NCBI RefSeq assembly: GCF_004010195.1
Contig: NC_057719.1
Span: forward strand, 55,434,785-55,498,784
Source: Chiloscyllium plagiosum
Lineage: Eukaryota
DNA length: 64,000 nucleotides
Direction: 5' to 3'
The notes under the pieces were generated by a model. It ran no database searches. It was not told the origin of the DNA and worked only from the letters and a program-made list of their open reading frames with translations. A program made the translations under genes and the position numbers. Of the stretch, positions 6,690 to 54,736 are shown piece by piece; within the stretch, counting starts at the first letter, position 1; every line of letters begins with the position of its first letter.

Positions 6690-6703
6690 AGAGGATGATA
6701 GAG

Positions 6704-11066: not shown

Positions 11067-11376
11067 ACAGACAGAGAACACTGGGGGCTAACACCTTCAA
11101 CATACTGTCTAGCTAATACCAATTGTTACAGATAACCTGAGAATGCAACTTTAAAAGAAAGGTCTTGTGATTTACACATGAAAGAAGTGAAACTATCATG
11201 GTATTCGAACAGATGAAAGACTCAGCAGACAATCAAGGTATTTTTCAATGTATAATTTCAGTTACATCACACTGTAAACTTTTACTATAAATTCTGTGCC
11301 TTACAAATGTGGCCTCCACAACCATCTGATGAAGGAGCCGCGCTCCGAAAGCTAGTGCTTCCAATTAAACCTGTTG
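11067..11376 (+). mobile_element. Penelope-like family B 3'UTR/pLTR
   Basis: Ends in CTGATGAAGGAGCCGCGCTCCGAAAGCTAGTGCTTCCAATTAAACCTGTTG; homologous to 54791-54885 and 59200-59500. Assignment to PLEs is inferred from the hammerhead and fold-back behaviour. Confidence 0.7.
11323..11357 (+). ncRNA. Minimal type I hammerhead ribozyme (family B)
   Basis: CAU-CUGAUGA-A-GGAGC(CGC)GCUCC-GAAA-GCUA^GUG; stem I CAU/GUG, palindromic AGCU stem III region. Confidence 0.75.
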
Positions 11377-11500
11377 TGGATTTTAGTGTGGAGAACATCC
11401 AAGAGTGGGTCATGCACCAAGTATGCTTTGAAGATGGTGTTTGCATCCTCAGTACCTCATACAAGCCCAGTTTACAAGTCTTAATAAGGCTTGCAATGAA

Positions 11501-12010
11501 CACCTCTGGGACATTTGGACCAACCAACCCAAGCACCGCGTGGCTCAACACTTCAACTCCCCCTCCCACTCCACCAAGGACGTGCAGGTTCTTGGACTCC
11601 TCCATCGCCAGACCATGGCAACACAATGGTTGGAGGAAGAGCGCCTCATCTTCCGCCTGGGAACCCTCCAACCACAAGGGATGAACTCAGATTTCTCCAG
11701 TTTCCTCATTTCCCCTCTCCCCACCTTGTCTCAGTCAAATCCCTCGAACTCAGCACCGCCTTCCTAACCTGCGATCTTCTTCCTGACCTCTCCGCCCCCA
11801 CCCCACTCCGGCCTATCACCCTCACCTTGACCTCCCTCCACCTATTGCATTTCCAACGCCCCTCCCCCAAGTCCCTCCTCCCTACCTTTTATCTTAGCCT
11901 GCTGGACCCACTTTCCTCATTCCTGAAGAAGGGCTTATGCCCGAAACGTCGATTCTCCTGTTCCTTGGATGCTGCCTGACCTGCTGCGCTTTTCCAGCAA
12001 CACATTTTCA
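11501..12010 (+). mobile_element. Penelope-like family A, GIY-YIG C-terminus plus pLTR
   Basis: EHLWDI..NQPKHRVAQHFNSPSHS.KDVQVLGLL...LEEERLIFRLGTLQPQGMN; TSD GCTTGCAATGAA at 11489-11500 and 12011-12022. Confidence 0.9.
11919..11954 (+). ncRNA. Minimal type I hammerhead ribozyme (family A)
   Basis: UC-CUGAAGA-A-GGGC(UUAU)GCCC-GAAAC-GUC^GA; intact core, palindromic ACGU, very short stem I. Confidence 0.75.
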
Positions 12011-12317
12011 GCTTGCAATGAAGTCAGGTGAATTTCTGCTGAAGAAAACAATTGTGTTAAAAAATTACCATGAGGTGATGGAAATGTATGAATGTATTGT
12101 GATTTTAAGTCCCTACTAACTAGCTTTTACTGAATGAAGTGAATTAAAAGACAATTGTGTTTCTATGTCCAAAAAATCAAACTTTGCTCAGAGAGTCACT
12201 TATGAAAGTCAAGCAGTTGAACAGGATATGTTTTCATGCGCAGAGAAAATTTTTAATTTCATATTTTCCTTTAAAGAGAAAGGAAGAAATGTGTAAGGAA
12301 CAGCTTAATTCTTTTGA

Positions 12318-12420
12318 GCTCTCATGGTACAGTGGTCATGTTCCAAACTCTGGGTCAGAAGGTCCAAATTCAAGTCCCATTTGTCCTAGATATGTGTCAT
12401 AATATCTGAATAGATTGACT
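12318..12420 (+). mobile_element. Short tRNA-derived SINE
   Basis: TGGTACAGTGG A-box and AATTCAAGTCC B-box-like motif; related to 18988-19220 and 37840-37935. Confidence 0.55.
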
Positions 12421-14319
12421 AAAGCTATGTACCATCATTATGCAACTCTGTTTAAAAAAACATATGTTTGCTTTAGTGTGCCTTATTCATCATGGAACAT
12501 TCGTATTCATGGCTGGTGCCAGTCTAAATATTAAGTACCTGTCTATCTTAATAATGCATTCACTGTCAAACACTGATAACATCAAGGCTGTTTTGTAAAT
12601 TTGAGATTCAGGGCTCAACCACATACACTCCAAGACATGTTTTTTTATGAAGTATCTTATCAATCAACTTAGTGACACATACCACCACGGTAACAAACTG
12701 AAGATTGTAGAAATATTCTGCCTCAAAGCTTGTCCAGCACAATTACAATCAATCCAATAGAAACACAAGCTGCTGTCAAATATTATATTAAATAATGCAA
12801 ATTATCAATTGCAACATTCATAATTTTCCACACAATATTGATCTTCTCCCTCTCCTTTTCTCAGCACAGAAATTAGAACATTTATTTCAGAATATAAACC
12901 AAAAGAAGAATGCTTGGAAATAATGAGTAAGCGCTGATACCATCAAATATTTTATCAGTTCTATTGAGAAAAAAAGCTGTGTAATGTTATGAACCTGTTG
13001 TATTTCATGGCATGTAGGTTTCCTTTCTGTGCTTGCTCTATAAAATAAGGCTAAATGCCAAAAGGAGAAATGACAGTACATGAGAGACACAAAACAAAAT
13101 CTGCGTGCATACAACATCAACGACAGTGCTCTCGGAATGATTGCATTTTTGAATACGATCAGCATGAATTGTTGATGTTCAGCAATATTGCAACAAAATA
13201 AAAAGCAGAGTAGATATTCACACTATTGTTGTTAAATGCATGTCAGTGAATTGAAAGTCTATCTTACATCTCTCCTAATTTAAATTTCTACAATAGAGGT
13301 ATATAAATCAGGCTGCTGACCCACAAGTGCTAATTTTACCATATCGCGAAAAATCAAGATCAACTCCACATTGAATTGTGCCACACTTCATTTGTAATTC
13401 TAAATGATCCAAAAGATCAAAGGATGCTGCATTCCCAACACTAAAATTCCTTTTTTGATGAGCACACAACATATCAAAGCCAATTAAACCAGTGCAATGG
13501 CACTGCATCTATCAAAATGAAAACTCAAGCTGCAAAACATTACACTCGTGGACATAGTCCAATTAGCATCTAAATATCAAGCAGACAAGATTCTTCAATC
13601 AAATTAGCAAATATCAGAGGGAAATACATTAGTCACATTAGGAATGTTTATTTTTAACCCAACATTAAAGGAATGATTATAAATATTTAAACAATCCCCC
13701 AAAATATCAATAATATGTAACCATTATTTAACAACACTTCAGATGATTAACAGTGATAGTGAAACATCTTTTAGAATTTATTATCTCCTGTTCCTTTCAT
13801 CCCTTCATTAGTAGTCAGCCATCTGGACCCTAAGGTCTGAAAATTTGTCCCTAAATCTCTTTGCTTCTCTATGCTCCTCAAAAAATAATCACAAACTAGG
13901 ATTGGATCTAGGGACCTACTGCATCCATAGCAACCACATTAAACCTCAGTTCGCATTTTCTGACAAATTAAACAGCATGGGATTTAAACTTTTCATGTTT
14001 TCTGGATATCACACTGCTGCAGGGAAATCTCCTCTGGCAAATAGTCAGCAATTTGATGTAAAATGGAAACAGAAGACATTGAAAATACTCAGCAGGACGG
14101 ATGACATCTGTGGAGAGAGAAACAGCATTAACGGGATGGAGTTTACACCGCCCGTTGGTCGATTTGAATGCAGGGGACGTGTAAAATCCAGTTGGTGGCC
14201 TTCCCACTGTCTACCTGCCTACCCCAATATACCTAAAACCTTACAGGTTTGGTGCAGTAGGAGGCAGCCCAACAGCTCTTGATCCTGTTGATGTCCTCAA
14301 CTGACTGATTACAAAGAAA

Positions 14320-14718: not shown

Positions 14719-14892
14719 GAAATGACCACTTAAAGGCCTCTACCCAACCCCATTCGGAGCCACAGCATGGGAAAGCTCAGCAGCTTTAACTGCATGTGAT
14801 AATGACCTCTTTTTGCATGTCCTCCTGAGTCCCAATGGAGACATGGTCTCCACACAATGCTCATTTACCCATCCTCCTCTGGTCTCTTGAAT

Positions 14893-19220: not shown

Positions 19221-20085
19221 CAATAATATAATCAGAAAAGCAAGTGTTTCAAGTGCAAAGCAAGTGGAAAAATACTACCCACTACATTTCAATCAAAATG
19301 CATTAGTTTACTTATGTAGACCTTGCTATACTCAGACCAAGTTTGCAGCTTTTGAAATGCTTCTAAAACATTGTTAATAGCAACTCCTCCTGCAGTTTGA
19401 CCTTTTGGAAGAATTACCACAAAAAATAACAGAAGCTGCTCAACAGGACGTTTTTCCCCAGTATCAAGTTTATAAACAGCAACAAAGTACTCCAATCTCA
19501 CAGAAATGGCAAATAACCAAATACTATTATCCTCTTCTCTGCTGCTGTATTTGCCATTTGTTTCAGTAAGTGGCTCAATTCTAATAAGATTCAGAACAAC
19601 TAATATACTTGAGCAGCAAGCTCTTTATTTTAATTTACACTATTAAACTAATCAAACCGATCTAGCACTGAATTATAACTGGTAAAGCCCAAACACAAAG
19701 AACTAATGAACAAATCCTCTTGAAACTATACGACCGACTTTACAAGGATAGATGTGTACAGTCGAAAGACAAAAGCAGAATAAAATCCTACAACTGCTAT
19801 TGAAAAAACTTGGAACATGTGCTGTTTAGATCGGATATAACAGTGATGATGAATATAAAGACATTGTCACACATTGTCAAAAACGTGTTGAATCTTTGGG
19901 CTGAATCTTTTGATTTTTTTCGGTGTATAAGTTGCGTTGAGTATTTTAGAAGGGATTCTCACCATAGCTCAAATATCTCACCGTATCTCAATTATTAACC
20001 ACCAACCCCATCCCAATGGCACTTTCACATCTGATTCTAATCCCATTTAAAATCCATGTGCCGTTTCTAGAAAACTGACCACTTA

Positions 20086-21577
20086 GTGAGGAATAAGAGA
20101 ATGGTCAAAGAAAGAGAAGGGTCGATCAGGGATAGCATAGGGAATTTGTGTGTAGAGTCTGAGGAGGTAGGGGAAGACCTAAAGGAGTTTTTTGCTTCAG
20201 TCTTTACGAAAGAAATGAACTTTGTAGTGAATGAAACCTTTGAAGAGCAGGTGTGCATGCTGAAATGGCTAGAGATAGAGGACGCTCATGTGCAGAAAAT
20301 TTTGTCAAACATTAAGATTGACAAGTCGCCAGGCCCGGACCAGATTTGTCCTCGGCTGCTTTGGGAAACGAGAAATGCAATTGCTTCGCCACTTGCGAAG
20401 ATCTTTTCATCCTCGCTCTCCACTGGAGGACTGGAGAGAGGCAAATGTAATTCCTCTCTTCAAGAAAGGAAATAGGGAAATCCCCGGCAATTATAGACCG
20501 TAAGTCTCACGTCTGCCGTTTGCAAGGTGTTAGAAAGGATTCTGAGGGATAGGATTTATGACCATCTGGAAGAGCATGGCTTGATTAAATGCAGTCAACA
20601 CGGCTCTGTGAGGGGCAGGTCATGCCTCACAAACCTTATAGAGTTCTTTGAGAATGTGACTAGAAATGTTGATGAGGGTCGAGCTGTGGATGTGGTATAT
20701 ATGGACTTCAGCAAGGCATCTGGATACAGAATTGGCTGGCCAACAGAAGACAGCGAGTGGTAGTAGAAGGAAAATATTCTGCCTGGAAGTCTGTGGTGAG
20801 TGGTGTTCCACAGGGCTCTGTCCTTGGGCCTCTATTGTTTGTAATTTTTATTAATGGGGATTGAAGGATGGGTCAGCAAGTTTGCAGATGACACAAAGTT
20901 TGGAGGTGTCATTGACAGTATAGGGGGCTGTTGTAGGCTGCAGCGGGACATTGATAGGATGCAGAGATGGGCTGAGAGGTGGCAGATGGAGTTCAACCTG
21001 GATAAATGTGAGTGATGCATTTTGGAAGGTCGAATTTGAAAGCTGAGTACAGGATTAAGGATAGGATTCTTGGCAGTGTGGAGGAACAGAGGGATCTTGG
21101 TGTGCAGNNNNNNNNNNNNNNNNNNNNNNNNNNNNNNNNNNNNNNNNNNNNNNNNNNNNNNNNNNNNNNNNNNNNNNNNNNNNNNNNNNNNNNNNNNNNN
21201 NNNNNNNNNNNNNNNNNNNNNNNNNNNNNNNNNNNNNNNNNNNCTAATTGAGGTATACGAGATAATGAGAGGCATAGATAGAGTCGATAGCCAGAGACTA
21301 TTTCCCAGGGCAGAAATGACTAACACAAGGGGTCATAGTTTTAAGCTGGTTGGAGGAAAGTATAGAAGGGATGTCAGAGGTGGGTTCTTTACACAGAGAG
21401 TTGTGAGAGCATGGAATGCGTTGCCAGCAGCAGTTGTGGAGGCAGGGTCATTGGGGACATTTAAGAGACTCCTGGACATGCATATGGTAACAGACATTTG
21501 AGGGTGCATACATGAGTGGTCAGCACAACATCGTGGGCTGAAGGGCCTGTTCTGTGCTGTACTGTTCTATGTTCTAT
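20086..21577 (+). mobile_element. CR1 LINE family 2, (GTTCTAT)n tail
   Basis: [47 protein letters not shown]; tail TGTTCTATGTTCTAT. Confidence 0.9.
21108..21243. other. Assembly gap (N run) inside CR1
   Basis: Run of Ns. Confidence 0.99.
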
Positions 21578-22330: not shown

Positions 22331-23014
22331 GCTTAGAGAGTGTGAAAGCACAGTCTGCTGAATGCCTCACAGTAACTTCTCCAATAAAGAAATGTCCCTA
22401 ACCTCTGACACTCAGAGGACTGCCAGAGAATAGGCACCTGCTCAGCCACAGTCAGAAGGGACCCCAGTGATGTCACCAATAGGGGACTTCATTCACATGC
22501 ACAGGGAGGAACTGGAACAACAGACAGGGATGTGGGAGGCAATGGCCTCATTGCTCAGAGGCTGCAGCAATGCAGTGGATCATATGACAGTCTGATTGTC
22601 CTATTGGCAGGTTGGCAGCTGCCATTGGAGAGTCAGGCCCAGCATACACCTGCTCCCCATTATCCCAGCTCTTGGTCCTCACTATATGTGCCACCTCCTC
22701 CAAACAGCCAGGGCAGTGCCATTAGGCACTTTACAGAGGCCTCAGAAATCTCCACGTCATCCAGCTCCACCCTGCAACCAACCCCTCAAAAGAGCCAACC
22801 CCAAATCTCCAGGACCAATGGGCTGCACTGCCAAGAAGGTACACTCCCCCGCAACTGCAAAAGGGAGGACTACACAAAGGAGAGAAAGGGTTAAGGAAAT
22901 ATATTGAGAGCACTTCGGTGGGATTGGTGGAAATGAATTGCATATTTTGTGTTACATTTCTATAACAAGCACTACTTTGAACTTTTATCTGGCTGTGTCT
23001 ATCTCTATGTAGCC

Positions 23015-23103
23015 TGTTCCTTGGATGCTGCCTGACCTGCTGCGCTTTTCCAGCAACACATTTTCAGCTCTGATCTCCAACATCTGCAGTCCTCACTTTC
23101 TCC
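23015..23103 (+). mobile_element. Penelope-like family A short insertion
   Basis: TSD TCTA(T/C)CTCTATGTAGCC at 22998-23014 and 23104-23120; begins a few nt downstream of the hammerhead cleavage site. Confidence 0.85.
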
Positions 23104-24755
23104 TCTACCTCTATGTAGCCCTGAATGCAAGTCTACCAACATGATGCATAAATTCAAGGCCATATATGATGTGCTATGAATTAATGCCTGTGTTGAGGGC
23201 CAACAACAAACAAGAGCATCAAGGTATATACAGAGCAATGGGTCCTGTTGATTCCATTACCCCTTGTCCTACAACATTCCTGTTCTTTCCCTGGTCTGTA
23301 TATCTAAAGTGTTCATGTGAATTGGGTGGTCAGCAATGTCTGGGACAGAGAAGTGCACAGCAAATAAGGAGTCAACTCACTAGTGGGACTGCCAATGGTT
23401 AGGAATCCTGCATGTCTCGCTTCCCTTTAAAGGGCCTTACATGGTGGGTTTTGCAGCTCCATTCCTCACAGATTAGCTCACTTAGCATGCCCAAGCCATC
23501 TGTGGTAGCAGCCATTTTTATCCCCATTGTGCATGATGGATGGCAGCAGTGAACACTCCTTAGCCAGTGGCTTCCAGCCTCTTCCTTTACATGTCAGTGA
23601 CAGCCCTTCTGGTGACATATACGGTTGATGTTAAAATCAGATTATCCATAATCTTTTTGAATGTGCAACAGGCTCAAAAGATCAAGCTGCTAACTCTTGT
23701 TCCTTAGTTGTACATTTGTATGAACGCTGTAGTCTTCACACCTCCCCAAGTTCCCACCTAACCCATGCCCATGGTCTTTCATCCAGCTGCTGGCATATGC
23801 ATAGACAATGCCAAATGTGATCTTGCACTGTAACCCACTTGAAGCCAGAGTACTCGTGACCATGGAAAGCTCCCTGACCACCCACGAGACCTCCTCCATC
23901 CATTTTACTATATCCCCTCCTCCCTTGTAGATAACATTGCTTCCCCTCATGATATCATACTGCCTTCCCTCCACCCATCCACCACCCTCCGCCAAGACTA
24001 CAGCCCCCCAATCCCAAACAATAGCTTACTGAGTCATTTTCCAATGGCAGTGGCCCCCTTATTATCCCAACCCAGCCCCCTTTCCCCATGGTTTCTGTGG
24101 ATGGGCCCAACAGACTGAACCCTTGAGTGACCTAACTGAACAACTCTGGGCTGATGGCCAAAATCTCCCCAACAGTGTTAGCCCTACCCTCCTAGACTGG
24201 CCACTATAGAGCCACAGGACTGACTGTGATCCACTTCCTATATTGCAGAAGCATGGATTCCCTGACAGAGATTACCCAGGCCTGTTGGCTCACCATGACC
24301 AAACCCCAAAGAAATGGTATGGGAGGCTGCATATGATTTACTGAGCCATGGCCCCTGACTGCCTGCTGCATCTATAGTCTTTGCTGAAGATTACTCCTCT
24401 ATGACTTTCAGACCTGACTGCTTACTTATTGCACATGAGTGTGTTTGCTGTGTAAGTTGCTGCCACATGGTGAGAGATTAATGTAACACACGACCATTCA
24501 GCAAGATGTACATCCCCCTAAAATGGAACTTGTATGTGTGACTATGTTAATTGGCAAGGAAAGGCAAGATATGGATGCAGTGAGCATTCAGCGAGGCGGT
24601 GCTGAGTGAGTGAGCACTAAGAGAGCAAACAAGAAGCCCTGCGATGCAGCAAAAGCATAAAAAATGAAGTCAGCTGATCCTACTATTGACAAAGGCCTCC
24701 CATTGAATTCTACCACAAATCGCATCATGGCTCATGACCATTCATAGTTCAAAAA

Positions 24756-24993
24756 TTGTGAGAAGATTTGTAGCTCAGGTGCTCATTGTTGTGGTTCTGT
24801 TTGCCGAGCTGGGAATTTGTGTTGCAGACGTTTCGTCCCCTGTCTAGGTGACATCCTCAGTGCTTGGGAGCCTCCTGTGAAGCGCTTCTGTGATGTTTCC
24901 TCCGGCATTTATAGTGGTTTGTCTCTGCCACTTCCGGTTGTCAGTTCCAGCTCTCCGTTGCAGTGGTCAGTATATTGGGTCCAGGTCGATGTG
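24756..24993 (-). mobile_element. Penelope-like family C (young subfamily) 3' end
   Basis: Reverse complement encodes HIDLDPIY then a pLTR with an intact hammerhead. Confidence 0.85.
24824..24863 (-). ncRNA. Minimal type I hammerhead ribozyme (family C), intact core
   Basis: Minus strand GCA-CUGAGGA-U-GUCACC(UAGACA)GGGGAC-GAAAC-GUC^UGC; stem I GCA/UGC. Confidence 0.8.
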
Positions 24994-26855: not shown

Positions 26856-27138
26856 AAGGGAGGTGGCTGCATAGAAACTATGACAGGACCAAGGATATTC
26901 TGCATTGACTGGAGTTCAGCAAATAAATGAAGAACCATCAGTTGAGTTGAATGCCTAGTAGCCTAAAAGTAGCACTGGGTAACACAGTGAAATCTTGGCT
27001 GGATCCTGAGATCAATATTCAGGTCACTCACCTGCATAAGGTCAGATGCCACTTGTATTATACACATGGAAGTTCTGTGACATACAAAGGATCTGTAATC
27101 TGAGATATAAATGTGTGGAGTGCTCATCTAATAAGTAG

Positions 27139-27252
27139 GAGAAAGTGAGGTCTGCAGATGCTGGAGATCAGAGCTGGAAATGTGTTGCTGGAAAAGCGCA
27201 GCAGGTCAGGCAGCATCCAGCTTATGCCCGAAATGTCGATTCTCCTGTTCAA
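27139..27252 (-). mobile_element. Penelope-like family A insertion with short inverted segment
   Basis: TSD CTAATAAGTAG at 27128-27138 and 27253-27263; inverted piece CTTATGCCCGAAATGTCGATTCTCCTG at 27221-27250. Confidence 0.85.
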
Positions 27253-30200: not shown

Positions 30201-30500
30201 AATATTATTGCAACGATTGCCATCAAACAGCGAAAATAATAAGCTACCCCAAAATTTGAAAGATCAGTTTCAACCACTTACGGTTATCATCTCATCTAGT
30301 AAGGATTCGACTGTTGTAAAAATTCTGCTCAAAGAGGTGTCATTTCAATATGTTAATGCTTCATCAATGTGTAGGCTTCATTCTCAGAGCTATAGTAGAA
30401 TGATTCATGACAGTTTGTGCTTTGAAGAAAAGAGTAGAACTAGGGTGTAATCAGGGATAAACTTCAAGCAACCACTTCCATTGGGTAGACGCTGAACAGA

Positions 30501-30663
30501 GCTGAAAATGTGTTGCTGGACACACTTTCCTAATTCCTGAAGAAGGGCTTATGCCCGAAACGTCGATTCTCCTGCTCCTTGGATGCTGCCTGACCTGCTG
30601 CTCTTGTCCAGCAACACATTTTCAGCTCTGATCTCCAGCATCTGCAGCCCTCACTTTCTCTGC
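30501..30663 (+). mobile_element. Penelope-like family A fold-back insertion
   Basis: TSD GTAGACGCTGAACAGA at 30485-30500 and 30664-30679; short inverted arm switching at GCTGGA microhomology. Confidence 0.9.
30533..30568 (+). ncRNA. Minimal hammerhead ribozyme (family A), intact core
   Basis: CUGAAGA-A-GGGC(UUAU)GCCC-GAAAC-GUC^GA; core identical to 11919-11954. Confidence 0.75.
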
Positions 30664-31366
30664 GTAGACGCTGAACAGACTTACACAACCACATTGGGGT
30701 GTTGCCTATTTCTGGCCTCATATAAAACGCACAAATGTGTATTCCTATAACATTCCATTCTCTTGATTTTGTTCACTAGCTTACAATATTCATACATTTA
30801 AAAATTCAACTTCTTTAATTCTATCCATTTGCACCTTCAAAAATTCAGCTAATTGATTATTCTGATTATATCTCTAGTAGAAATAACAATTAAATAAAGA
30901 ACGGTTTATTAAATAAATGGTAGTTCAGCAGTAACTCTGTAAGATTCTTCTTCCATGTATGTAATAGCATTGCCAAGCCTTGTATTTTCTCTTTGAATTT
31001 CTCAGGGTGTTTTTATTTGACATTTTACTCACTATATTCAGATCACATTTACTGACCTGGTTGTTTCCTCTCCATGGACTAGATGTGTTCTGTGTACAGC
31101 AGATTTCACTTGAATATCTACATGACAAGTCAAGGCAATTTATCATCTCGAGAGGACACAGCTATGGTTCACTAAAAAAATGCTCAGCATTAGAAAATTT
31201 GTCAGTGCAATAAAAGCTCATGTTTCAGTGGCATCAGTAAATAATTAACTCATCCATATTCTGGTCCAGAAGTAAAATTCATTTCTTATGTTTAGTTGTT
31301 AAATGTAATCTTAATACATGGAAATGTGATGCTGCGTGCTTGACTTGGCTCCTAGTTAAGAACACG

Positions 31367-31669
31367 AATGGGCTGAGAAGTGGCAGATGGAGTTTAATTC
31401 AGATAAATGCGAGGTGCTGCATTTTGGGGAAGCAAATCCTAGCAGGACTTATACATTTAATGGTAAAGTCCTAGGGAGTGTTGCTGAACAAAGAGACCTT
31501 GGAGTGCAGGTTCATAGCTCCTTGAAAGTGGAGTCACAGGTAGATAGGATAGTGAAGAACGCGTTTGGTATGCTTTCATTTATTGGTCAGAGTACTGAGT
31601 ACAGGAGTTGGGAGGTCATGTTGCGGCTATACAGGACATTGGTTAGGCCACTGCTGGAATATTGTGTGC
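31367..31669 (+). mobile_element. CR1 family 1 internal fragment
   Basis: WAEKWQMEFNSDKCEVLHFG...LYRTLVRPLLEYCV. Confidence 0.85.
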
Positions 31670-32569
31670 TTAGATGAGGGAGTCGAAGGGTGGGTCAGTA
31701 AATTTGCAGATGATACGAAGATAGGTGGAGTTGTGGACAGTGAGGAGGGCTGTTGTCGGCTGCAGAGGGACTTAGATATGATGCAGAGCTGGGCTGAGGA
31801 GTGGCAGATGGAGTTCAACCCTGCCAAGTGTGAGGTTGTCCATTTTGGAAGAACAAATAAGAATGCGGAATACAGGGTTAATGGTAGGGTTCTTAGTGAG
31901 GTTGAGGAACAGAGGGATCTTGGGGTCTATGTACATAGATCTTTGAAGGTTGCCACTCAGGTGGATAGAGTTTGTAAGAAGGCCTATGGAGTATTATCGT
32001 TCATTAGCAGAGGGATTGAATTCAAGAGTCTTGAAGTGATGTTGCAACTGTACAGGATTTTGGTTAGGCCACATTTGGAGTACTGTGTGCAGTTCTGGTC
32101 GCTTCACTTTAGGAAAGATGTGGAAGCTTTGGAGAGGGTGCAGAGAAGATTTACCAGGATGTTGCCTGGAATGGAGAATAGGTCGTACGAGGATAGGTTG
32201 AGAGTGCTAGGCCTTGTTGGAACGGCGAAGGATGAGGGGTGACTTGATAGAGGTTTATAAGATGATCAGAGGAATAGATAGAGTAGACAGTCAGAAACTT
32301 TTTCCCCGGGTGCAACAGAGTGTTACAAGGGGACATAAATTTAAGGTGGAAGGTATAGGGGAGATGTCAGGGGTGGGTTCTTTACCCAGAGAGTGGTGGG
32401 GGCATGAAATGCGCTGCCTGTGGGAGTGGTAGAGTCAGAATCTTTGGTGACCTTTAAGCGGCAATTGGATAGGTACATGGATGGGTGCTTAAGCTAGGAC
32501 AAATGTTCGGCACAACATCGTGGGCCGAAGGGCCTGTTCTGTGCTTTATTGTTCTATGTTCTATGTTCT
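31670..32569 (+). mobile_element. CR1 family 2, 5'-truncated, abutting the family 1 fragment
   Basis: [20 protein letters not shown]...; (GTTCTAT)n tail. Confidence 0.9.
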
Positions 32570-33209: not shown

Positions 33210-36200
33210 GCAAGAATGACTTGCATTGAAATGACATCATGAATGGCTGCAGGAAGCCTCAAAAAGTTTTACAACCAATATGTTTCTGTGGCCAGCAGTG
33301 AAAAATCAGAATGGTGTGCTACTTCCCTGGTGTCAGGATCAAGGATGTCTCAGAGAGGGTGCAGAATGTTCCCACCGGGGAGAGGGACCAGCAAGAGGTC
33401 ATTGTCTACATTGGAACCAACGACACAGGAAGGGAAAAGGTTGAGATTCTGAAGGGAGATTACACAGAGTTAGGCAAGAATTTAAAAAGGAGATCTTCGA
33501 GAGTAGTAGTATCTGGATTACTCTCGGTGCTACGAGCTAATGAGGGCAGGAACAGGAGGATAGAGCTGATGAATGCATGCTGAGGAGCTGGTGTATGGGA
33601 GAAGGATTTACATTTTTGGACCATTGGAATCTCTTTTGGTGTAGAAGTGACCTGGACAAGAAAGACGGATTGCACCTAAATTGGAAGGGGACTAATAGAC
33701 TGGCAGGGAAATTTGCTAGAGCTGCTGGGGAGGATTTAAACTAGTAAGGTGGGGGGATAGCCAGGGAAATAGTGAGGAAAGATATCGATCTGAGATGGGT
33801 ACAGTTGAGAACAGAAGCGAATCAAACAGTCAGGGCAGGCAGGGACAAGGCAGGACTATTAAATTAAACTTCATTTATTTCAATGCAAGGGGTCTTACAG
33901 GGAAAGCAGATGAACTCAGGGCATGGTTAGGAACATGGGATAACATAGCAATTACAGAAACATGACCCAGGGATGGACAGGTTTGGCAGCTTAATGTTCC
34001 AGGATACAAATGCTACAGGAAGGATAGAAAGGGAGGCAAGAGAGGAAGGAGAGTGGCATTTTTGATAAGGGATAGCATTACAGCTGTACTTAGGGAGGAT
34101 ATTCCCAGAAATACATCCAGGGAAGTTATTTGGGTGGAACTGAGAAATAAGAAAGGGATGATCACTTTATTAGGATTGTGTTATAGACCTCCTAATAGTC
34201 AGAGGGTAATTGAGAAACAAATTTGGAAGGAGATCTCAGCTTTCTGTAAGAATAATAGGGTGGTTATGGTAGGGGATTTTAACTTTCCAAATGTAGACTG
34301 GGACTGCCATAGTGTTAAGGGTTTAGATGGAGAGGAATTTGTTAAGTGTGTACAAGAAAGTTTTCTTATTCAGTATGTGGATGTACCTACTAGAGAAGGT
34401 TCAAAACTTAACCTACTCTTGGGAAATAAGGCAGGGCAGGTGACTGAGGTGTCAGTGGGGGAGCACTTTGGGGCCAGCCCTTCAGAAATGAGATAACGAG
34501 AATCCAGAGAAAGTATATTCCTGTTAGGGTGAAAGGAAAGGCTGGTAGGTATAGGGAATGCTGGATGACGAGAGAAAATAAGGGTTTAGTTCGGAAAAAG
34601 AAGGAAGCATATGTCAGATATAGACAGGATAGATTGAGTGAATCCTTAGAAGAGTATAAAGGCAGTAGGGGTATACTTAAGAGGGAAATCAGGAGGGCAA
34701 AAAGGTGTCATGAGATAGCTTTGGCAAATAGAATTAAGGATAATCCAAAGGGATTTTACAACTACATTAAGGACAAAAGGGTGACCAGGGAGAGAATAGG
34801 GCCCCTAACAAATCAGCAAGACAGCCTTTGTGTGGATCCACAGAAAATGGGGAAGATACTAAATTAGTATTTTGCATCAGTATTTACTGTGGACGAGGAT
34901 ATGGAAGATATAGACTGTAGGGAAATAGATGGTGACATCTTGAAAAATGTCCATATTACAGAGGAGGAAGTGCTGGATGTGTTGAAATGCATAAAGGTGA
35001 ATAAATCCCTAGCACCTGATCAGGTATACCCTAGAACTCTATGGGAGTTAGAGAAGTGATTGCTGGGCATCTTGCTGAGATATTTGTATCACTGATAGTC
35101 ACAGGTGAGGTGCCGGAAGACTGGAGGTTGGCTAACATGGTGCCACTGTTTAAGAAAGGTGGTAAGGATAAGCCAGGAACTATAGACCAGTGAGCCTGAT
35201 GAAGGTGGTGGGCAAGTTGTTGGAGGGAATCCTGAGGAACAGTTCGTACATGTATTTGGAAAAGGAAGGACTGATTAGGGATAATCCACATGGCTTTGTG
35301 CGTGAGAAATCATGTCTCACAAACCTGATTGGGATTTTGAAGAAGTAACAAAGAGGATTGATGAGGGCTGAGTGACAGATGTGATCTATATGGACTTCAG
35401 TAAGGCGTTTGAGAAGGTTCCCCATGGGAGACTGGTTGGCAAGGTTAGATCTCACGGAATACAGGGAGAATCAGCCATTTGGATACAGAACTGGCTAAAA
35501 GGTAGAAGACAGAGGGTGGTGGTGGAGGTTGTTTTTCAGACTGGAGGCCTGTGACCAGTGGAGTGCCACAAGTATCTGTGCTGGGTCCTCTACCTTTTGT
35601 CATTTATATAAATTATTTGGATAAGAGATATAGTTAGTAAGTTTGCAGATGATACATAAATTGGAGATGTAGTGGACTGTGAAGAAGGTTACTTCAGATT
35701 ACAACAGGATCTTGATGGGCCAATGGGCTGAGAAGTGATAGATGAAGTTTAATGGAAGGTGCTGCATTTTGGGGAAAGCAAATCTTAGCAGGACTTATAC
35801 ACTTAATGGTAAGGTCCTAGGGAGTGTTGCTGAATAAAGAGACCTTGGAGTACAGGTTCATAGGTCCTTGAAAGTGGAGTCACGGGTAGATAGGATAGTG
35901 AAGAAGGCGTTTGGTATGCTTTCATTTATTGGTCAGTGTATTGAGTACAGGAGTTGGGAGGTCATTTGCAGCTGTATAGGACATTGGTAAGGCCACTGTT
36001 GGAATATTGCGTGCTATTCTGGTCCCCTTCCTATCAGAAAGATGTTGTGACACTTGAAAGGGTTCAGAAAAGATTTACAAGGATGTTGCCAGGGTTGAAG
36101 AATTTGAGCTATAGAGAGAGGTTGAATAGGCTGGGACTGTTTCCCCTGGAGCGCGGAGGCTGAGGGGTGACTTCATAGAGGCTTACAAAATTATGAGGGG

Positions 36201-37550
36201 CATGGATAGGATAAATAGGCAAAGTCTTTTCCCTAGTGTGGGGAAGTCCATAACTAGAGGGCATAGGTTTAGGGTCAGAGGGGAGAGATATAAAAGAGAC
36301 CTAAGGAGCAACTTTATCACACAGAGGGTAGTACATATATGGAATGAGCTGCCAGAGGAAGTGGTGGAGGCTGGTACAATTGCAACATTTAAAAGACATT
36401 TGGATGGGTATATGAATAGGAAGGGTTTGGAGTGATATGGGCCAGGTACTGGCAGGTGGGACTAGATTGAGTCGGGATATCTGGTCAGCATGGACAAGTT
36501 GGACTGAAGGGTCTGTTTCCGTGCTGTACATCTCTATGACTCTCTGACTCTATATTGCTTTTGAGGTGAAGTCACAATTGTAATGTAGGAAAAGTGACAA
36601 CCAATTTATCGACAGCAAGCTCCCACAAACAATGTTGAATTTAAACACCAAATGATCTATTTTAAGTGTTAGTTGAAGGACAACTATAAGCTAATACTAG
36701 AGAGGTTGCTGTTATTCTTCATCAAACAGTGTTATGGGATATTTTACATTCATTGGAGTGAATAGACTGAAGGTGGAATCCCCTGTTCCTGAAGTTCAAG
36801 AGCAAGGAGTTGGAAAGACCACCTGGAGCCTGCTGCCTTCCTGCCTCTGCCAGAATAAAGTTCTGGATGGGAAGGCCCATGCTCAACCTTCCTGTCTTGC
36901 TGCTGGTCGAGGCTCTAAAGTGGTCAGTTGAGGATCGTATAAGAGGCTCAGCCCCAGCACTGAACTTCCATGCAGGTTTGTCTGTTTCATGATAGCTATT
37001 TCTCAGAAGGGCAGCTTGTCATCTCAAAGGCAACCATTGCCTGATCAAGGGAATAGACAACAAACAGGGGATGCCTATTGTAATTCATTTCCTGTCCTTC
37101 TACACCCCCAACTCCTGTCCCAATGAGCACCAACACCATAAAACTCCCCTATGCCTGCTCCCCTTAACTGATTTTTGTCCTCAATTGCTCAGCAATTTTG
37201 TGATTTTGAGGCTACCATGCAGCATCAGCATTGTCTCTTCATGGTTGAGACTTCCATCCCAAGAACATAATTTGAGGGGAAGCCAACTGGTGGCCTCACC
37301 AATGCCTGTCGATTTGTAGCTTTGCACTTCTTCCACAGGTTGGTTGTCAGCTCTGCAGCTAGAAAGTAAAACTCCCAATGTCTCAACACAATCCCACTCA
37401 GGTCTTGGATTCACCTCTCATCTGAGATAGCACATTGTCAGTGTAGTGTTTCATCAATGCTGTATCAGTAGATCAACCGCAGTTACTTACTTGAGTTTCT
37501 ATACTGAGACTTGCATCTAAACTGTATGACTTAGACACATGACTACTACA
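33210..37550 (-). mobile_element. Ancient Deu-domain-like SINE (SacSINE1/AmnSINE1-like) split into three pieces
   Basis: Pieces at about 33210-33280, 36554-36770 and 37400-37550; ACAGCAAGCTCCCACAAAC, GTGTTATGGGATATTTTAC and CTCTCATCTGAGATAGCAC resemble the reverse-complement Deu domain (from memory of the consensus). Confidence 0.55.
33281..36553 (+). mobile_element. Near-complete CR1 family 1 LINE: ORF1 SGNH esterase, APE endonuclease, RT (disabled)
   Basis: ORF1 MVCYFPGVRIKDV...VYIGTND...DGLHLNWKG; APE YFNARGL, CYRPP, GDFNFP; RT YMDFSKAF, SKFADDT; stops, frameshifts and internal deletions; (CTCTATGA)n tail. Confidence 0.92.
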
Positions 37551-37935: not shown

Positions 37936-39063
37936 GAAAATATTTTACATGCAGACAACCACAGCTCAAGATGCTCCAAGCTGATATCTCAATTTTCATT
38001 TCATCGTATTGGGTTAAATCGCAAGGATTATGATTATAGGAAAGATGGTAGTGCTAAGGGCAATACAAAGAGAAATCCTAAACAAAAATCTACACAGAGG
38101 ACACCTAGACATTCCAAACTGCAGAGCAAAGAGATAACATTTAGTCTGGCGGCCAGGCATTTTGAAAAACATAGAGGATCACATCCTGCTATGTCAAATC
38201 TGCCTCACATACAGCCATGACCCTACAGATTTCGACATGAATTCTGGAAGGCCATGGAACTCTCACTGGATTTCAGTCCAGGTAAACTATTATTCAATAG
38301 TTGCACCACTCTGTTGCACCAGAGTGGTTTGAAGTGAAAGGTTTCATTCAATGACAGTTCATTCTGTGAACATAATATTAAAAGGTAGGCTATATCTTTG
38401 AATAATGGATCCACATAAGCAGAACTCTTAATTGGAAGGAGATTGAAAATGCCTGCACCAGTCTTAGAATACAACTTCAATCCAAACATGAGCTCACAAA
38501 CCACAAGAATGTAAAACAACTGGAGAAAAGCCACAACAAAAAGCAGCAGCAGTGGTACAACTATAGATGCAGGGCAAACATTTTGAGTATTAAAGCCAAG
38601 AAAGAAGTCTGGTAAAGGGACAGAAAGCTAGACGTCATCATGTCCATCAGATCAACTGAGGAGAGTCAGGAAAGCACTGACCTCACTCAAGACAAGAAGT
38701 AAGAATGAGCATCACAGAATATAATACAACCAAATGGACGCAACATCAGATGGTATACAGAGTGGTGCAATTATTCCAGACACTGCAACACCATCACCCC
38801 ATTGTTGTACTCAAGCAAACAAAATCAGGATGTCCAATGAGAGTTCTAAATTGTCTCAACCTGTGAAAATCAGACATTGAGGGGCAGCAGAGAGGTGATA
38901 ACAGCAAAAGCAGACATAATGACAAAATAACAGAAATGGTAAGAGTTATTATTACAATGAGTGCGTAAGTAAGTAAAAGGAAACTATAGGAAAATCATAG
39001 ATCAAGTACAGAGAAGTTCAGTAGCAAAGTTTTTCATTAGCAGCATGGCTGGAAGATCAGAGT

Positions 39064-39214
39064 TGAGAGTGTGTTGCTGGAAAGGCACAGCAGGTCAGTC
39101 TGCATCCAAGGAGCTGGAGAATCTCCTGCTCCTCGGATGCTGCCTGTCCTGCTGTGCTTTTCCAGCAACACATTCTCAACTCTGATCTCCAGCATCTGCA
39201 GGCCTCACTTTCTC
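39064..39214 (+). mobile_element. Penelope-like family A fold-back insertion with apex at the hammerhead cleavage site
   Basis: TSD CTGGAAGATCAGAGT at 39049-39063 and 39215-39229; inverted arm ends GGAGAATC at 39123. Confidence 0.9.
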
Positions 39215-39274
39215 CTGGAAGATCAGAGTGCAGATGCATAACTTCTGCTTCTGGAAGTCACTGTCATGCACAGT

Positions 39275-42190: not shown

Positions 42191-42359
42191 GTACTACTTT
42201 ACCAATTTCAACCTCTCCTGATGAAGCTGGTATGGCTTCAAAACTGCTTATCCTCTGAAGACAGCAGCATCAGAAACCTGGTCACCCTAGAAAACACAAT
42301 AAATTCATGTGCCGACACAGGAACTGATGTGTTGTCCCTGCATTTCTCCAAAGTAGATA

Positions 42360-43665
42360 GAGCCATAGAGATGTACAGCATGAAAACAGATCCTTCGGTC
42401 CAACCCATCCATGCCGACCAGATAGCCAAACCCAATCTAGTCCCACCTGCCAGCATCCGGCCCATATCCCTCCAAACCCTTTCTATTCATGTACCCATCC
42501 AAATGCCTTTTAAATGTTGCAATTATACTAGCCTCCACCACTTCCTATGGCAGCTCATTCCATACACATACAACCCTCTGTGAGAAAATGTTGCCCCTTA
42601 GGTCTATTTTATATCTTTCCCCTCTCACCTTAAAACTATGTCCTCTAGTTCTGGACTCCCCCACCCCAGGGAAAAGACTTTGTCGATTTACCCTATCCAT
42701 CCCCCTCATAATTTTGTAAACCTCTAGAAGGTCACCTGTCAGCATCCAACGTTCCAGGGAAAACAGCCTCAGCCTGTTCAGTCTCTCCCTGTAGCTCAAA
42801 TCCTGCAGCCCTGGCAATATCCTTGTCAATTTTTTCTGAACCCTTTCAAGTTTCACACCAGAACTGCATGCAATATTCCAACAGTGGCATAACCAATGTT
42901 CTGTAGAGCTACAACATGGCCTCCCAACTCCTGTACTCAATACTCTTACCCTCCAACAACTTGCCCACCACTGGCATCAGGCTCACTGGTCTATAGTTCC
43001 CTAGCTTGTCCTTACCACATTTCTTAAAGAGTGGCACCACGTTAGCCAAACTCCAGTCTTCCAGAACCTCACCTGTGACTATCGATGATACAAATATCTC
43101 AACAAGAGCCCAGCAATCACTTCTCTAGGTTTCCACAGAGTTCTAGGGTACGCCTGATCAGGTCCTGGGGATTTATCCACCTTTATGCATTTCAAGGCAT
43201 CCAGCACGTCCTCCTCTGTAATATGGACATTTTTCAAGACGTCACCATCTATTTCCCTACATTCTATATCTTCCATGTCCTTTTCCACAGTAAATACTGA
43301 TGCAAAATACTCATTTAGTATCTCCCCATCTCCTGTGGCTCCACACGGAGGCCACCTTGCTGATCTTTGAGGGGCTCTATTCTCTCCCTAGTTATTCTTT
43401 TGTCCTTAACATATTTATAAAACCCCTTTGGATTCTTCTTAATTCTACTTGCCAAAGCTATCTCATGTATTTGGCAAATGTAACTTTGCAGATGACATCA
43501 AAATTGGAGGTGTAGTAGACAGCGAAGAAAGTTACCTCAGATTACAACAGGATCTTAATCAGATGGGCCAATGGGCTGAGAAGTGGCAGATGGAGTTTAA
43601 TTTAGATAAATGTGAGGTGCTGCATTTTGGGAAAGCAAATCTTAGCAGGATTTATACACTTAATG
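42360..43665 (-). mobile_element. CR1 family 1 with internal deletion and an inverted terminal segment
   Basis: Minus-strand body 42360-43467; plus-strand FADDIKIGG...YTLNG at about 43485-43669; candidate TSD GTAGATA at 42353-42359 and 43666-43672. Confidence 0.85.
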
Positions 43666-44169
43666 GTAGATAATCCAACAATTAGCAAAGAAGGCAGATT
43701 ATTAGCTACTAGCATAATATGTATTGGCTCATTCACCCTTCCTTTCTTGACCAATATTTCCCGTGGCTGAATGGATTTTGGGATCCAAGAACTGCTGACT
43801 CATTAGGGCGACAGACAGCTTAGCTACAGTAGAGATTACAAAAAGGTGGTACTCATACATTCTCTGAGCACAAAGTCAGCAAGTATTCAAGCCACTCATA
43901 GGAAATACATCTACATTTAAAAGACCGTAAATATTTCTGAAATACTTTGGGCCAAAGGAAATTGTCACAACTGAACTTTATAAAGTCTGCCAGAGATGCC
44001 AGGGAAATGATGAGTTCAATAAATGATACATGGCAACGTTGCAGCAATTTGCTTCTATATATAAATACAAACTTATTCATGACAACCTACTGTTCAGTTC
44101 CCAGGGTATGTCCTACATACATCTGCTCTGATCCGATGTTAAGAAAACCAGAACAATTAAGGAAGTCTT

Positions 44170-44830
44170 TGAAATGTTGCAGTATTTCACTGATTTACGG
44201 AAGTGGTAAAACAAATGGATAGGTTTTTACCCAATTTAGCAGATGTGAAAGAACTGCTATTTCAGTTGCAAACGCAAGACAAGGTTTGGTGCTAATAAAA
44301 TGCCCAACGGATGTTATTTGAAAGAATCAAAGAAATTCAGTATCTGCAGACAATTCCCACCAATTGTTGTCACAGATGCATCATGATTGAAAAAGAACAA
44401 ATGGCTGCAGTTACTAAAAAAAAGATTTCATTTGCTACCCAGGCTTGCAAAAACATGCCAATTATTCAATTCATGAATAAAACTAACCATAAACCTTTAG
44501 TTATTTTATTGAATGTTAACAAATTCATAGAAACACTGACAAAGAACAAAGATTATTTTTGATGTTGATGGGATTTGATGCCACAATGGAATATGTACAA
44601 GGGAAGAAGCAGACAACAACAGAGACATTGTTGCATATTCCAATAGCAAGGCCTGAACAAAGGGATAGAAACTTTTTTTTTCAGACAGAGACCTTTGCTT
44701 CACTAATGACCAAGTATCTAGCAGCAATAAATGAAGGTATAATTAAGATTAGAGATTCATAGAAATCAAATGAAGCATATGGCCCAATCTTTGGATATTT
44801 CATCAAATGATGGTCAGGAAATATTCCAAT
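44170..44830 (+). mobile_element. Ancient Ty3/Gypsy pol remnant (RT connection/RNase H)
   Basis: MDRFLPNLADVKELLFQLQTQDKVWC**NAQRMLFERIKEI; IEKEQMAAV; TNHKPLVILLN; LMGFDATMEYVQGKKQTTTETL. These parallel KFLPNLA...W...Q..AFE.IK, IEKEALA, TDHKPL and YVPGK....ADALS. Confidence 0.8.
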
Positions 44831-46469
44831 CTTGTTCTGAGGCAATATTTTTGAGTAAAAAAGATATCTCAGAGTCATGAACAACATGCTAATTTATCAT
44901 GCAAATCTTGGCTGCAGTCCTCAGACTCCAAATACTGCAGAGGTTACACAAGATTCACTTGAGTATCACAAAGTGTCGTGGCAGTGAGTAAAGTAATGGA
45001 TGGATTTTCCAGGCAGTGACAATCTCATGCAAATTGTCACTCTGTCCCTTTTTTTTCACAAACTGAGAGTGCTCCATAATTTCTGACAAGAAATTCTGAG
45101 TGAGCTCCCTTCAGAAATGCAGAGCAGTATTTCCATTCTAACAGTTTTCTCACAATGCAAAACTATCAGTGGAAGGCAACATATGACCCATTTTACACCC
45201 ATATTCTGGAATTTAAAAGGTACAGACAGCTACGCTGGCAGCTGCTGTCAAATGGTAAGTACATAGTGAAGTGTGACGTTAGGGTGCTAAGAGAATGAAG
45301 GGGTAGGGTGCCAGTGGAATGCTAGCAAAGTACAGATGAGATGGGTTGTTTGCCAGCTGGATAACTGCTGGGGTGTCAGGTTGCAAGGAGGCAAGGGGCT
45401 AGGTATGTGACATTGTGTTTGGAGTAGGTAGAGGTGGATGAACGAAATTGGGTCCAGTAGGGTACAGGAGTATGGGGTGTAAGGTTGAGTTGGGGTGAAG
45501 GAAGAACATAGGTAGGTCTGGTTTGGTGCCGGGTAAAGGCAGTTGGGTACCTAGAATGTCAGGTCAATGTCTGAATGAGGTGTTGATGGGAAGTAAGTTT
45601 GGGGTCAGTTGAATAGTTGCTCAGAAGTTAGACAATGTATTTTATGGTCCAACTTTACATGATAAACCATTTACTTAACTTGATTTGATTTATTATTGTC
45701 ACATTACAGAGATACACCGAAAAATATTGTATAGTATGCTATCTAGACAAATTATACCTTACAAACATGTTTCATTCCATCTCACTCCACAGTGGCCTGG
45801 CTTCATGCAAGCTTTTGATGGGAAATAGGCCACAAACTCAATGCCCTACCCCACTCCACATATTCATACCATTTTTCACAACAACATACTTGGATAACGT
45901 GAGGGAGAGGTAGTCAAGTACTATTCCTATCAAAAGTGGAATCAGAATAATTGCCACAGTGCACACAATTCCAAACTACCCTGGGCAGTCAGTACAGATT
46001 CATGGATCTAAACTTAAAGATACATACTTGAGAGAGCATTGCATTCGTGATTCAGTCTTTTAGAGGCAGAAAGTAGGATAGTGTGAAAAAAAACAGGAGT
46101 ATGTTAGTTTTCAAATGGAGATAATCTTCTAATGTATTGGCCTGGTGTATTCAGACAACATTTGTTCTGTTCAGCATATTCTCAATCTCATCTGAGAGAG
46201 CCATGAAAACAAGTATACTAGTGACACTGCTACAACTATTGTCTGTGAAACAGGGAGAAGATGTAGAACAAGATTATGTAAATGTTAAGATGTATTGCAA
46301 TGAGCAAAACCAGAGACTTCAGGGTGATGTAAAGAGTTTATACAAATGTCTAAATGACATACTTTACATCATCATTCGGCAGCGATGCAAAATCAGATGA
46401 CAATTAGAATATGTTTCCCTCTATTGGCCCAGTGGTAGAGATAAAGTCTTGATCTATATAATATTCTAG

Positions 46470-47226
46470 CAAGTTTTGAGAATATTTGTAGCTCAGGTTG
46501 AGGTTCTGGATGTAAGTTTGCTCACTGAGCTGGAAGGTTCGTTTTCAGACATTTAGTCACTATACTAGGTAACATCTTCAGTGAGCCTCCGGTGAAACAC
46601 TGGTGGTATGGCCCGTTTTTTATTTATGCGTTTAGGTTTCCTTGAGTTGGTGATGTAATTTACTGTGGTGATGTAATTTCCTGTTCTTTTTCTCAGGGAG
46701 TGGCAAATTGAATCCAAATCCAAGCCAATGTATATACAAGCAAAGCAAAATATCATTTATTTGTCATATATCATTTATCAAATACAAAATACCTTGCAAA
46801 AACTGTAACAAACACTACATTGGACAAACAGGCAGAAAACTAGCCACCAGAATACATGAACATCAACTTGCCACAAGTGAGAGAGACATGACCCTCTCTC
46901 ACTAGTATCTTTACATACGGATGCAGAAGGACACCACTTTGACTGGGACAACACATCCATCCTAGGACAAGCCAAACAGAGACACACGTGAGAATTCCTA
47001 GAAGTATGGCATTCCAACCGGAACTCTATCAACAAACACATTGACTTGAATCCCATCTCCTGAGAAAAAGAACAGGAAATGACATCACCAACCCAAGGAA
47101 ACCTAAACACCTAAATAAGCCATACCACCAGTGCTTCATCAGAGACTCACTGATGATGTTACCTAGGATGGTGACGAAACATCTGAAAAAGAACCTTCCA
47201 GCTCAGTGAGAAAACTTACATTCAGA
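46470..47226 (+). mobile_element. Penelope-like family C with GIY-YIG and inverted pLTR
   Basis: YKIPCKNCNKHYIGQTGRKLATRIHEHQLA (GIY-YIG); inverted 3' end copy at about 46470-46730, direct copy 46780-47226. Confidence 0.9.
47147..47186 (+). ncRNA. Minimal hammerhead ribozyme (family C)
   Basis: UCA-CUGAUGA-U-GUUACC(UAGGAU)GGUGAC-GAAAC-AUC^UGA; stem I UCA/UGA; GUC to AUC likely by CpG decay. Confidence 0.7.
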
Positions 47227-54718: not shown

Positions 54719-54736
54719 GCTATTGATTCTAGATGG

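Follow-up and report, generated by a model that had tools for sequence, protein, structure and literature searches.

Minimal Hammerhead Motifs in Three Repeat Families

The 64,000-nt stretch of the Chiloscyllium plagiosum genome analyzed here (assembly GCF_004010195.1, contig NC_057719.1, positions 55,434,785 to 55,498,784; hereafter the window) contains minimal type I hammerhead ribozyme motifs together with remnants of Penelope-like elements (PLEs). The motifs belong to three repeat families, that we named A, B, and C, whose DNA is not alignable from one family to another outside the motif. Copies are designated by the position of C3, according to the usual hammerhead numbering. Six copies had been listed in a first-pass annotation made from the sequence alone. 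They lie in the following features (TSD, target-site duplication):

11323 to 11357 (+): family B minimal hammerhead; C3 at 11326, stem II GGAGC/GCUCC, palindrome AGCU, predicted cut after 11354
11921 to 11952 (+): family A minimal hammerhead; C3 at 11923, stem II GGGC/GCCC, palindrome ACGU, 2-bp stem I, predicted cut after 11950
30485 to 30679 (+): short family A insertion; inverted arm without tail, direct arm with intact motif (C3 at 30537) and tail, 16-bp TSD
47147 to 47186 (+): family C motif; C3 at 47150, 6-bp stem II, stem I UCA/UGA, palindrome lost (ACAU)
53035 to 53517 (−): family A subfamily copy with endonuclease remnant; C3 at 53159, stem II GAGU/GCUC, palindrome lost (ACUU)
24753 to 24993 (−): family C-type copy; endonuclease C-terminal remnant, then motif 24824–24863 with C3 at 24860, stem I GCA/UGC, ACGU, and an A.G mismatch in stem II

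The series CUGANGA, one extra base, stem II, and GAAA was found with C3 at 11326, 11923, 30537, and 47150 on the plus strand and at 53159 and 24860 on the minus strand, in agreement with the positions first annotated. All six copies have the CUGANGA and GAAA-NN-UH core. As in the published consensus, one unpaired base separates A9 from stem II, and a G10.1-C11.1 pair is present, in 6/6; the extra nucleotide after A9 had been correctly noticed. The six decayed copies already named were all recovered (6564+, 6783−, 46581−, 58322−, 58340+, and 59385+), and four more were identified at 10279(+), 151(+), 27220(+), and 5900(+).

We searched the whole window with the published descriptor of minimal hammerheads (Cervera 2014, supplement of PMC4209133), which specifies a stem I of 3–7 bp. 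Requiring a stem I of at least 3 bp gave two matches (11326 and 47150), and of at least 2 bp, five; the 24860 copy failed because of its stem II mismatch. In 500 dinucleotide shuffles, the mean number of matches was 0.006 and 0.02, respectively, and the maximum was 1. As five descriptor matches compare with 0.02 per shuffle, the motifs are real and beyond chance. An Rfam scan of the window yielded 19 matches up to E = 10, none at the gathering score and none to a hammerhead family. Neither the family B pattern in viral contigs nor the family A pattern in prokaryote genome contigs gave a match. A loose core pattern gave 119 loci in viral contigs, one of which matched the stem descriptor and none of which resembled the window; they were discarded as chance matches.

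The first-pass annotation overstated how intact the motif copies are. It had described a palindrome in the intact copies and GAAA followed by CGUC or GCUA at every listed position. The palindromic 15.1-16.1 segment, which replaces helix III, is kept together with the core in four of the six copies that it called intact. It is lost at 47150, which reads GAAA-CAUC, and at 53159, which reads GAAA-CUUU; each would form two of four helix III pairs as a homodimer. The stems had been described as still pairing, but stem II has an A.G mismatch at 24860. The list of stem I pairings left out the abundant family A, in which stem I consists of 2 bp (UC/GA) followed by a mismatch, and the CAU/GUG given at 11323 is a decayed form. 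The first stem I pair of the 11326 copy is U.G, against C-G in the family majority, and at 11325, where the window has T, C is read in 723/832 RNA reads of one strand. The reported covariation of the stems is mostly a difference between families. Within families, two double changes were counted by eye, too few for a covariation test: G-C to A-U at stem II pair 2 (11923 vs. 53159) and U-A to G-C at stem I pair 3 (47150 vs. 24860).

Endonuclease Remnants and Insertion Anatomy

Besides the copies listed above, families A and C are represented by the following features:

11495 to 11680 (+): family A GIY-YIG endonuclease C-terminal remnant, Neptune-like by the linker criterion; 79% identical to residues 298–359 of P0001, a Penelope-type reverse transcriptase (RT)-endonuclease fragment with a CxxC linker
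6474 to 6703 (+): family A fold-back insertion; decayed motif with C3 at 6564, 14-bp TSD
58235 to 58465 (no strand assigned): family A fold-back; two decayed motifs, 58322− and 58340+, arranged back to back
39049 to 39229 (+): family A fold-back without motif; arms start at or just past the predicted cut, 15-bp TSD
27128 to 27263 (−): family A insertion; inverted 5′ piece 27220–27250, tailed 3′ piece, 11-bp TSD
23003 to 23120 (+): family A tailed 3′ fragment without motif; 12-bp TSD
46777 to 47057 (+): family C GIY-YIG remnant, Penelope/Poseidon-like by the linker criterion; frameshift and stops, Pfam GIY-YIG E = 0.002, under the cut-off
46470 to 46666 (−): inverted family C arm with decayed motif; C3 at 46581, G12 changed, complementary to 47072–47226
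6706 to 7018 (−): family C copy; endonuclease remnant, decayed motif with C3 at 6783

Endonuclease remnants lie upstream of the motif in two family A and three family C copies, and they match proteins with an RT and/or a GIY-YIG domain. In family A, 11495–11680 and 53407–53517 match the C-terminus of P0001, which is composed of an RT-like part, the CxxC linker, and a GIY-YIG domain. The pseudo-long terminal repeat (pLTR) of the 11923 copy has a tail-less end at about 12013. The family A stem I is under the descriptor minimum and its stem II is short (4 bp); rows with a 2-bp stem I are present in the published alignment of minimal hammerheads (Culex, Drosophila, and Oikopleura; PMC4209133).

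The family C remnants 46777–47057, 6830–7018, and 24847–24993 match relatives found by HMMER (445 at E ≤ 0.001), and tblastn of these relatives leads back to the window. Among the matches listed, we scanned 12 relatives: 6/12 have RVT_1 and 6/12 GIY-YIG. By eye, the CxxC linker is found in P0001 and in L002, a marine contig described below, and is absent from the 90 residues preceding the endonuclease of seven family C relatives. A CX2-5CxxC linker is present in Neptune and Nematis and absent from Penelope and Poseidon elements (PMC8557442). By this linker criterion, judged by eye on relatives only, family A appears Neptune-like and family C Penelope/Poseidon-like.

The short repeat, which had been taken for a SINE (short interspersed nuclear element)-looking pLTR end, has a characteristic anatomy. 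Measured from C3, the end point is +121 to +124 in eight family A arms and about +85 to +102 in four, and one more arm stops aligning at +51, defining an optional tail of about 30–35 nt. In the fold-backs at 30500, 39061, and 58235, the direct arm is tailed and the inverted arm tail-less. Exact flanking repeats of 11–16 bp were found for 6/17 units; among 2000 random pairs, two reach 11 bp and none 12 bp. The 5′ side of the short repeat corresponds to the 3′ untranslated region (UTR) of the endonuclease gene. No tandem array holding the motif was found in the window, and ARAGORN predicted no tRNA gene there, although decayed heads can escape this program. PLE insertions are known to show 5′ truncation, an inverted arm, and a 30- to 40-bp tail (PMC8557442), the tail being linked to two start sites of reverse transcription (PMC11167929). 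Since 5′ truncation, inverted arms, tail, and TSDs are as in PLEs, the short repeat is best read as a truncated pLTR, in agreement with the first annotation.

Several further observations concern individual insertions. In the insertion at 27128–27263, the inverted 5′ and direct 3′ pieces do not overlap, in contrast to the other fold-backs; this arrangement resembles the twin priming of L1. At 39103–39140, both fold-back arms align from +28, the first base past the predicted cut. This fold-back could record a cleaved template, in a single case in which microhomology blurs the junction. At 6675–6692, 245–265, and 53030–53045, a run of pyrimidines and then TAG or TA closes the family A tail, resembling a 3′ splice site; introns are possible in PLE pLTRs. 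A divergent family A-type 3′ end at 5900–6002, 68% identical to the 30537 copy and with the second half of the motif only, probably represents a further subfamily. At 6474–7018, a family A fold-back and a family C copy lie tail to tail, separated by about 15 nt.

Family B Copies and Their Carriers

Family B is represented, in addition to its motif at 11323–11357, by the following features:

11040 to 11376 (+): family B pLTR/3′ end copy, 3′-truncated and with no open reading frame (ORF) remnant; read and contig depth limited to about 11036–11395, with loose ends at 11376
11364 to 11369 (+): poly(A) hexamer ATTAAA, 9 nt past the predicted cut; family transcripts have poly(A) about 13 nt further
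54725 to 54897 (+): family B fold-back without motif; short inverted arm and longer direct arm, 12-bp TSD
59264 to 59498 (+): decayed family B copy; motif near 59385
10279 to 10347 (+): decayed family B copy, absent from the first annotation

The 11040–11376 copy resembles 59264–59432, 10279–10328, and 54793–54814, and the insertion at 54725–54897 has the same form as those of family A. A metagenome scan with the family B motif pattern returned two marine contigs, L001 and L002. L002 has the motif on the 3′ side of an ORF whose product is 44–47% identical to PLE RT-endonuclease proteins, and in L001, an inverted RT piece is found beside the motif. The 5-bp stem I, the location after the endonuclease, and a downstream AATAAA did not form part of the search pattern. 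Beyond the motif, the two contigs and the window have nothing in common. Through L001 and L002 and the insertion signature, family B likely belongs to a PLE pLTR, like families A and C.

Conservation and Predicted Activity of the Copies

We compared 11–12 aligned family A arms, window copies only and with subfamilies mixed, counting cells off the majority separately at non-CpG and CpG positions. Core, helix III, and stem cells together are off the majority in 13/142 non-CpG cells, against 88/942 elsewhere (p = 1.0), and CpG cells in 12/50 functional positions, against 7/22 elsewhere. Stems alone give 11/74 (p = 0.15). The excess conservation of core and stems over the rest of the pLTR, for which the first annotation had proposed a test, is therefore not seen in this small sample.

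Stem II pairing was predicted at 0.9–1.0 for 11326, 11923, and 30537. Values close to 0 were obtained for 6564, 58340, and 47150 when the inverted arms were included in the fold, and for 53159 and 24860 within native flanks. The fold-back arms are thus predicted to sequester three copies (6564, 58340, and 47150). Dimer formation requires that both the palindromes and stem I of the partners match. Cross-family pairs have 0–1 contiguous stem I pairs. Because of this incompatibility, the neighbors 11326 and 11923 cannot complement each other. The sole fully compatible pair on the same strand with intact stems is 11923 and 30537, 18,614 nt apart. Homodimer co-folding did not give the active double hammerhead as the minimum-energy structure for any of seven copies; the core is not scored by the energy model, so that this provides no evidence.

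Published data on PLE hammerheads indicate that monomers are inactive and dimers weak (PMC4209133). The PAc hammerhead of Anolis carolinensis cuts only with the protein of the element, and RNA sequencing (RNA-seq) showed no ends at the site (PMC11167929). Among Xenopus dimers, one of nine was active and eight remained uncleaved (bioRxiv 10.64898/2026.07.22.740005). Taken together with the analyses above, this suggests that the scattered solo copies are probably inert and decaying.

Sequencing Reads and a Probable Family B Poly(A) Site

Four runs were mapped on 11000–12050 at 80% likeness. The RNA run is a poly(A) single-cell run, of which about 2 in 100 were covered, with 6229 reads mapped; its species label matches a DNA source, and its reads derive from many copies, perhaps of another species. 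Two presumed DNA runs gave 200,267 and 93,420 contigs on 1 kb of the window, figures that are not copy numbers. The repeat families are very abundant.

No pile-up of read ends was observed anywhere on 11000–12050 in the RNA run, a weak test in such a library type. Past 11376, 1065 RNA reads first show six more bases of the family and then turn into an A-run (agreement 0.8), whereas ordinary sequence continues at the same place in the three contig runs. Depth over the family B motif is 1141 versus 205, favoring the sense of the motif if the first mate is antisense, as is the convention. ATTAAA and AATAAA belong to the usual poly(A) hexamers. A hexamer is found 9–11 nt past the predicted cut in 4/4 family B copies and in 0/4 of the family A and C copies tested. 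In L002 it lies 18 nt past the cut (L002:1361–1400). In the published alignment, about 9/44 rows have AAUAAA or AUUAAA in the short 3′ flank, as counted by eye (PMC4209133 supplement); its consensus line labels the 3′ flank region as AU-rich only (PMC4209133).

It is thus likely that a poly(A) site is provided by family B pLTRs some 30 nt past the cut. The A-run reads are uncut molecules, which have no bearing on cleavage, and priming on A-rich genomic variants is possible. Coupling of a hammerhead with polyadenylation in PLEs was not found in the literature looked through, subscription journals being outside its coverage, and PMC2377424 contains no passage on polyadenylation.

Origin of the Motifs and Alternative Explanations

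These data very probably identify the motifs as minimal type I hammerheads that belong to the 3′ terminal repeats of 5′-truncated Penelope-like insertions, next to endonuclease remnants in families A and C and likely so in family B, with solo copies that are probably inert and decaying. Endonuclease remnants and motif anatomy agree here with the three Penelope families of the first-pass annotation. In an intact tandem element, as the literature suggests, the motifs of the two pLTRs would form helix III by pairing of their palindromes, ACGU or AGCU, and the dimer, probably assisted by the element's own protein, would process the RNA of the element. The start of reverse transcription would lie some 60 or 95 nt downstream of the cut, and the reaction would usually abort early; being near this start, the motif would be copied into most insertions. 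Selection would likely act on the motif in master elements and not in inserted copies, leading to the conservation of the core between families.

Several points weigh against this reading. Considered alone, the core is off the majority in 2/68 cells against 88/942 (p = 0.08), a hint of extra conservation, the copies having been partly recognized through their core. The copies 11326, 11923, and 30537 keep the core, the palindrome, and a stable predicted stem II, so that inertness is an inference. In the window, neither a Penelope-type RT remnant nor a full-length copy was found, nor any family B ORF, and the GIY-YIG Pfam scores are under the curated cut-off. The motif match of L001 and L002 is by construction, as the pattern was derived from the motif itself, and relatives of the L002 ORF gave no tblastn match on the window.

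Four other explanations were considered. That the short family A repeat is an element of its own, non-autonomous and resembling a retrozyme or a SINE, whose defined 5′ end would immediately precede the hammerhead and which Penelope proteins would mobilize in trans, seems unlikely. Contigs are about fourfold deeper over the last 70 nt than over the endonuclease part, loose ends pile up before 11919 in all four runs, 3/11 short arms in the window begin at most 10 nt upstream of C3, and PLE-derived retrozymes occur in one chondrichthyan (bioRxiv 10.64898/2026.07.22.740005). However, the other short arms begin at −23, +5, +10, +28, +28, +34, +43, and +68, as 5′ truncation predicts. At 53163, the alignment of the long copy linked to an endonuclease likewise breaks off at −4, and the pile before 11919 may therefore correspond to subfamilies with different upstream sequence; the absence of a tandem motif array and of tRNA genes (ARAGORN) also speaks against an independent element. 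Quite unlikely, in our view, is that family B pLTRs are hammerhead and poly(A) cassettes that end element or host transcripts, where cleavage about 30 nt upstream of the tail, with a partner motif or the protein of the element, would take off the tail and destabilize the RNA. The 1065 A-run reads past 11376 and the sense-biased depth (1141 vs. 205) speak for such cassettes, as do the hexamer in 4/4 family B copies, L002, and about 9/44 published rows, and the Clec2 precedent (PMC6765202). Conversely, the polyadenylated reads carry an uncut motif and come from one run, the window copy does not have the downstream part, and families A and C are devoid of the hexamer. In a stronger and distinctly unlikely form, the hammerhead of family B, and perhaps of many Penelope elements, would act together with a functional poly(A) site lying about 30 nt downstream. 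The abundant copies would provide shark transcripts with 3′ ends and constitute a deadenylation switch spread by a transposon, tails being cut off by a protein-assisted or dimeric ribozyme.

The first annotation had proposed that several copies, dispersed on both strands, could cut any host transcript crossing the window. This we consider very improbable, even though the three well-kept copies (11326, 11923, and 30537) combine core, palindrome, and well-predicted stem II, and the families are abundant and present in RNA, making pairing in trans conceivable. Stem I is incompatible between families (0–1 pairs) and the nearest compatible pair on the same strand is 18,614 nt apart. Predicted stem II pairing is close to 0 for 6564, 58340, 47150, 53159, and 24860, the first three when folded with their inverted arms. 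In addition, monomers are inactive and dimers weak (PMC4209133), 8/9 Xenopus dimers remained uncleaved (bioRxiv 10.64898/2026.07.22.740005), read ends do not pile up on 11000–12050 in what is a weak test, and no host exon was found among the 106 open frames scanned. Finally, the idea that chance produced these matches in a region rich in repeats can draw on the fact that copies of one repeat are not independent, the five matches amounting to about three events. This idea is refuted and its residual probability is negligible: three unalignable families each have the complete motif in one and the same position, on the 3′ side of the endonuclease, against 0.02 matches per shuffle and 1/119 viral core loci matching the stem descriptor, and the extra base, the G10.1-C11.1 pair, and the palindrome are features beyond the descriptor.

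Other Contents of the Window

The window has a G+C content of 41% and contains 136 N. Self-similarity masks about 27% of it, much of which corresponds to remnants of long interspersed nuclear elements (LINEs) with apurinic/apyrimidinic (AP) endonuclease and RT domains. These decayed copies, which we take to be CR1/L2-like, are located at 9151–10382, 20071–21501, 31217–32307, 33302–36551, 42357–43719, 53523–54345, and 59691–62262. A 63-bp tandem duplication is present within a LINE remnant at 60553–60679. The nearest named protein to one window remnant is an uncharacterized Chiloscyllium punctatum protein (80% identical). A Pfam scan of the 106 open frames of at least 65 amino acids outside masked repeats revealed no host exon; short exons would escape it. 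A single one of these frames matched, to OSK (E = 8.5e-5, under the cut-off), at 33302–33580, immediately upstream of a LINE remnant; this weak OSK/SGNH-like frame precedes the longest LINE copy.

Comparison with Known Hammerhead-Bearing Elements

The minimal hammerhead of PLEs is of a kind already known since 2014 (PMC4209133). Like those of other metazoan PLEs, the window motifs are of type I, with CUGANGA and an extra base, the G10.1-C11.1 pair, a 4-nt palindrome in place of helix III, and a short stem I. The window also resembles them in the presence of several families in one genome, the prevalence of solo copies, and pairs on opposite strands 100–700 bp apart (PMC4209133). Families B and C agree with the descriptor in stem I; the 2-bp stem I of family A is below it but like that of the Culex, Drosophila, and Oikopleura rows, and stem II of family A is short. 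No shark row was found in the supplements of that paper among those searched, file 1 being outside the search. A literature search found no paper on shark PLE hammerheads, the sole mention of "shark" in the paper retrieved referring to the shape of the motif. Our observations thus extend a known Penelope feature to a shark-like genome. That an abundant short repeat is the end piece of a Penelope element is useful for repeat annotation but not surprising.

Poseidon PAc from A. carolinensis (Frangieh et al. 2024, PMC11167929) similarly has a hammerhead in its pLTR and two 3′ end points, with a 30- to 40-bp tail. The family C relatives are without the CxxC linker, as are Penelope and Poseidon, whereas family A and the L002 element carry the linker of Neptune and Nematis. 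Cleavage of the PAc motif was shown in vitro, where the protein is needed (PMC11167929); those of the window are known from sequence alone. The non-LTR retrozymes (Li et al. 2026, bioRxiv 10.64898/2026.07.22.740005) are likewise non-coding, derived from PLE pLTRs, and endowed with a type I hammerhead, and they have been reported in one chondrichthyan. Unlike the window copies, which form no such array, they consist of tandem units each with a motif (bioRxiv 10.64898/2026.07.22.740005).

What PLE hammerheads do has yet to be settled (PMC8557442), and a genome with so many copies of three families is good material to test it. The poly(A) site past the family B cut is the one lead that could add something new in this respect. 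It finds its closest likeness in the hammerhead of the rodent Clec2 3′ UTRs, in which the cut site also lies upstream of the poly(A) signal (PMC6765202). The Clec2 hammerhead is a single-copy, discontinuous, and demonstrated ribozyme (PMC6765202), whereas that of family B is a predicted minimal motif present in high copy number.

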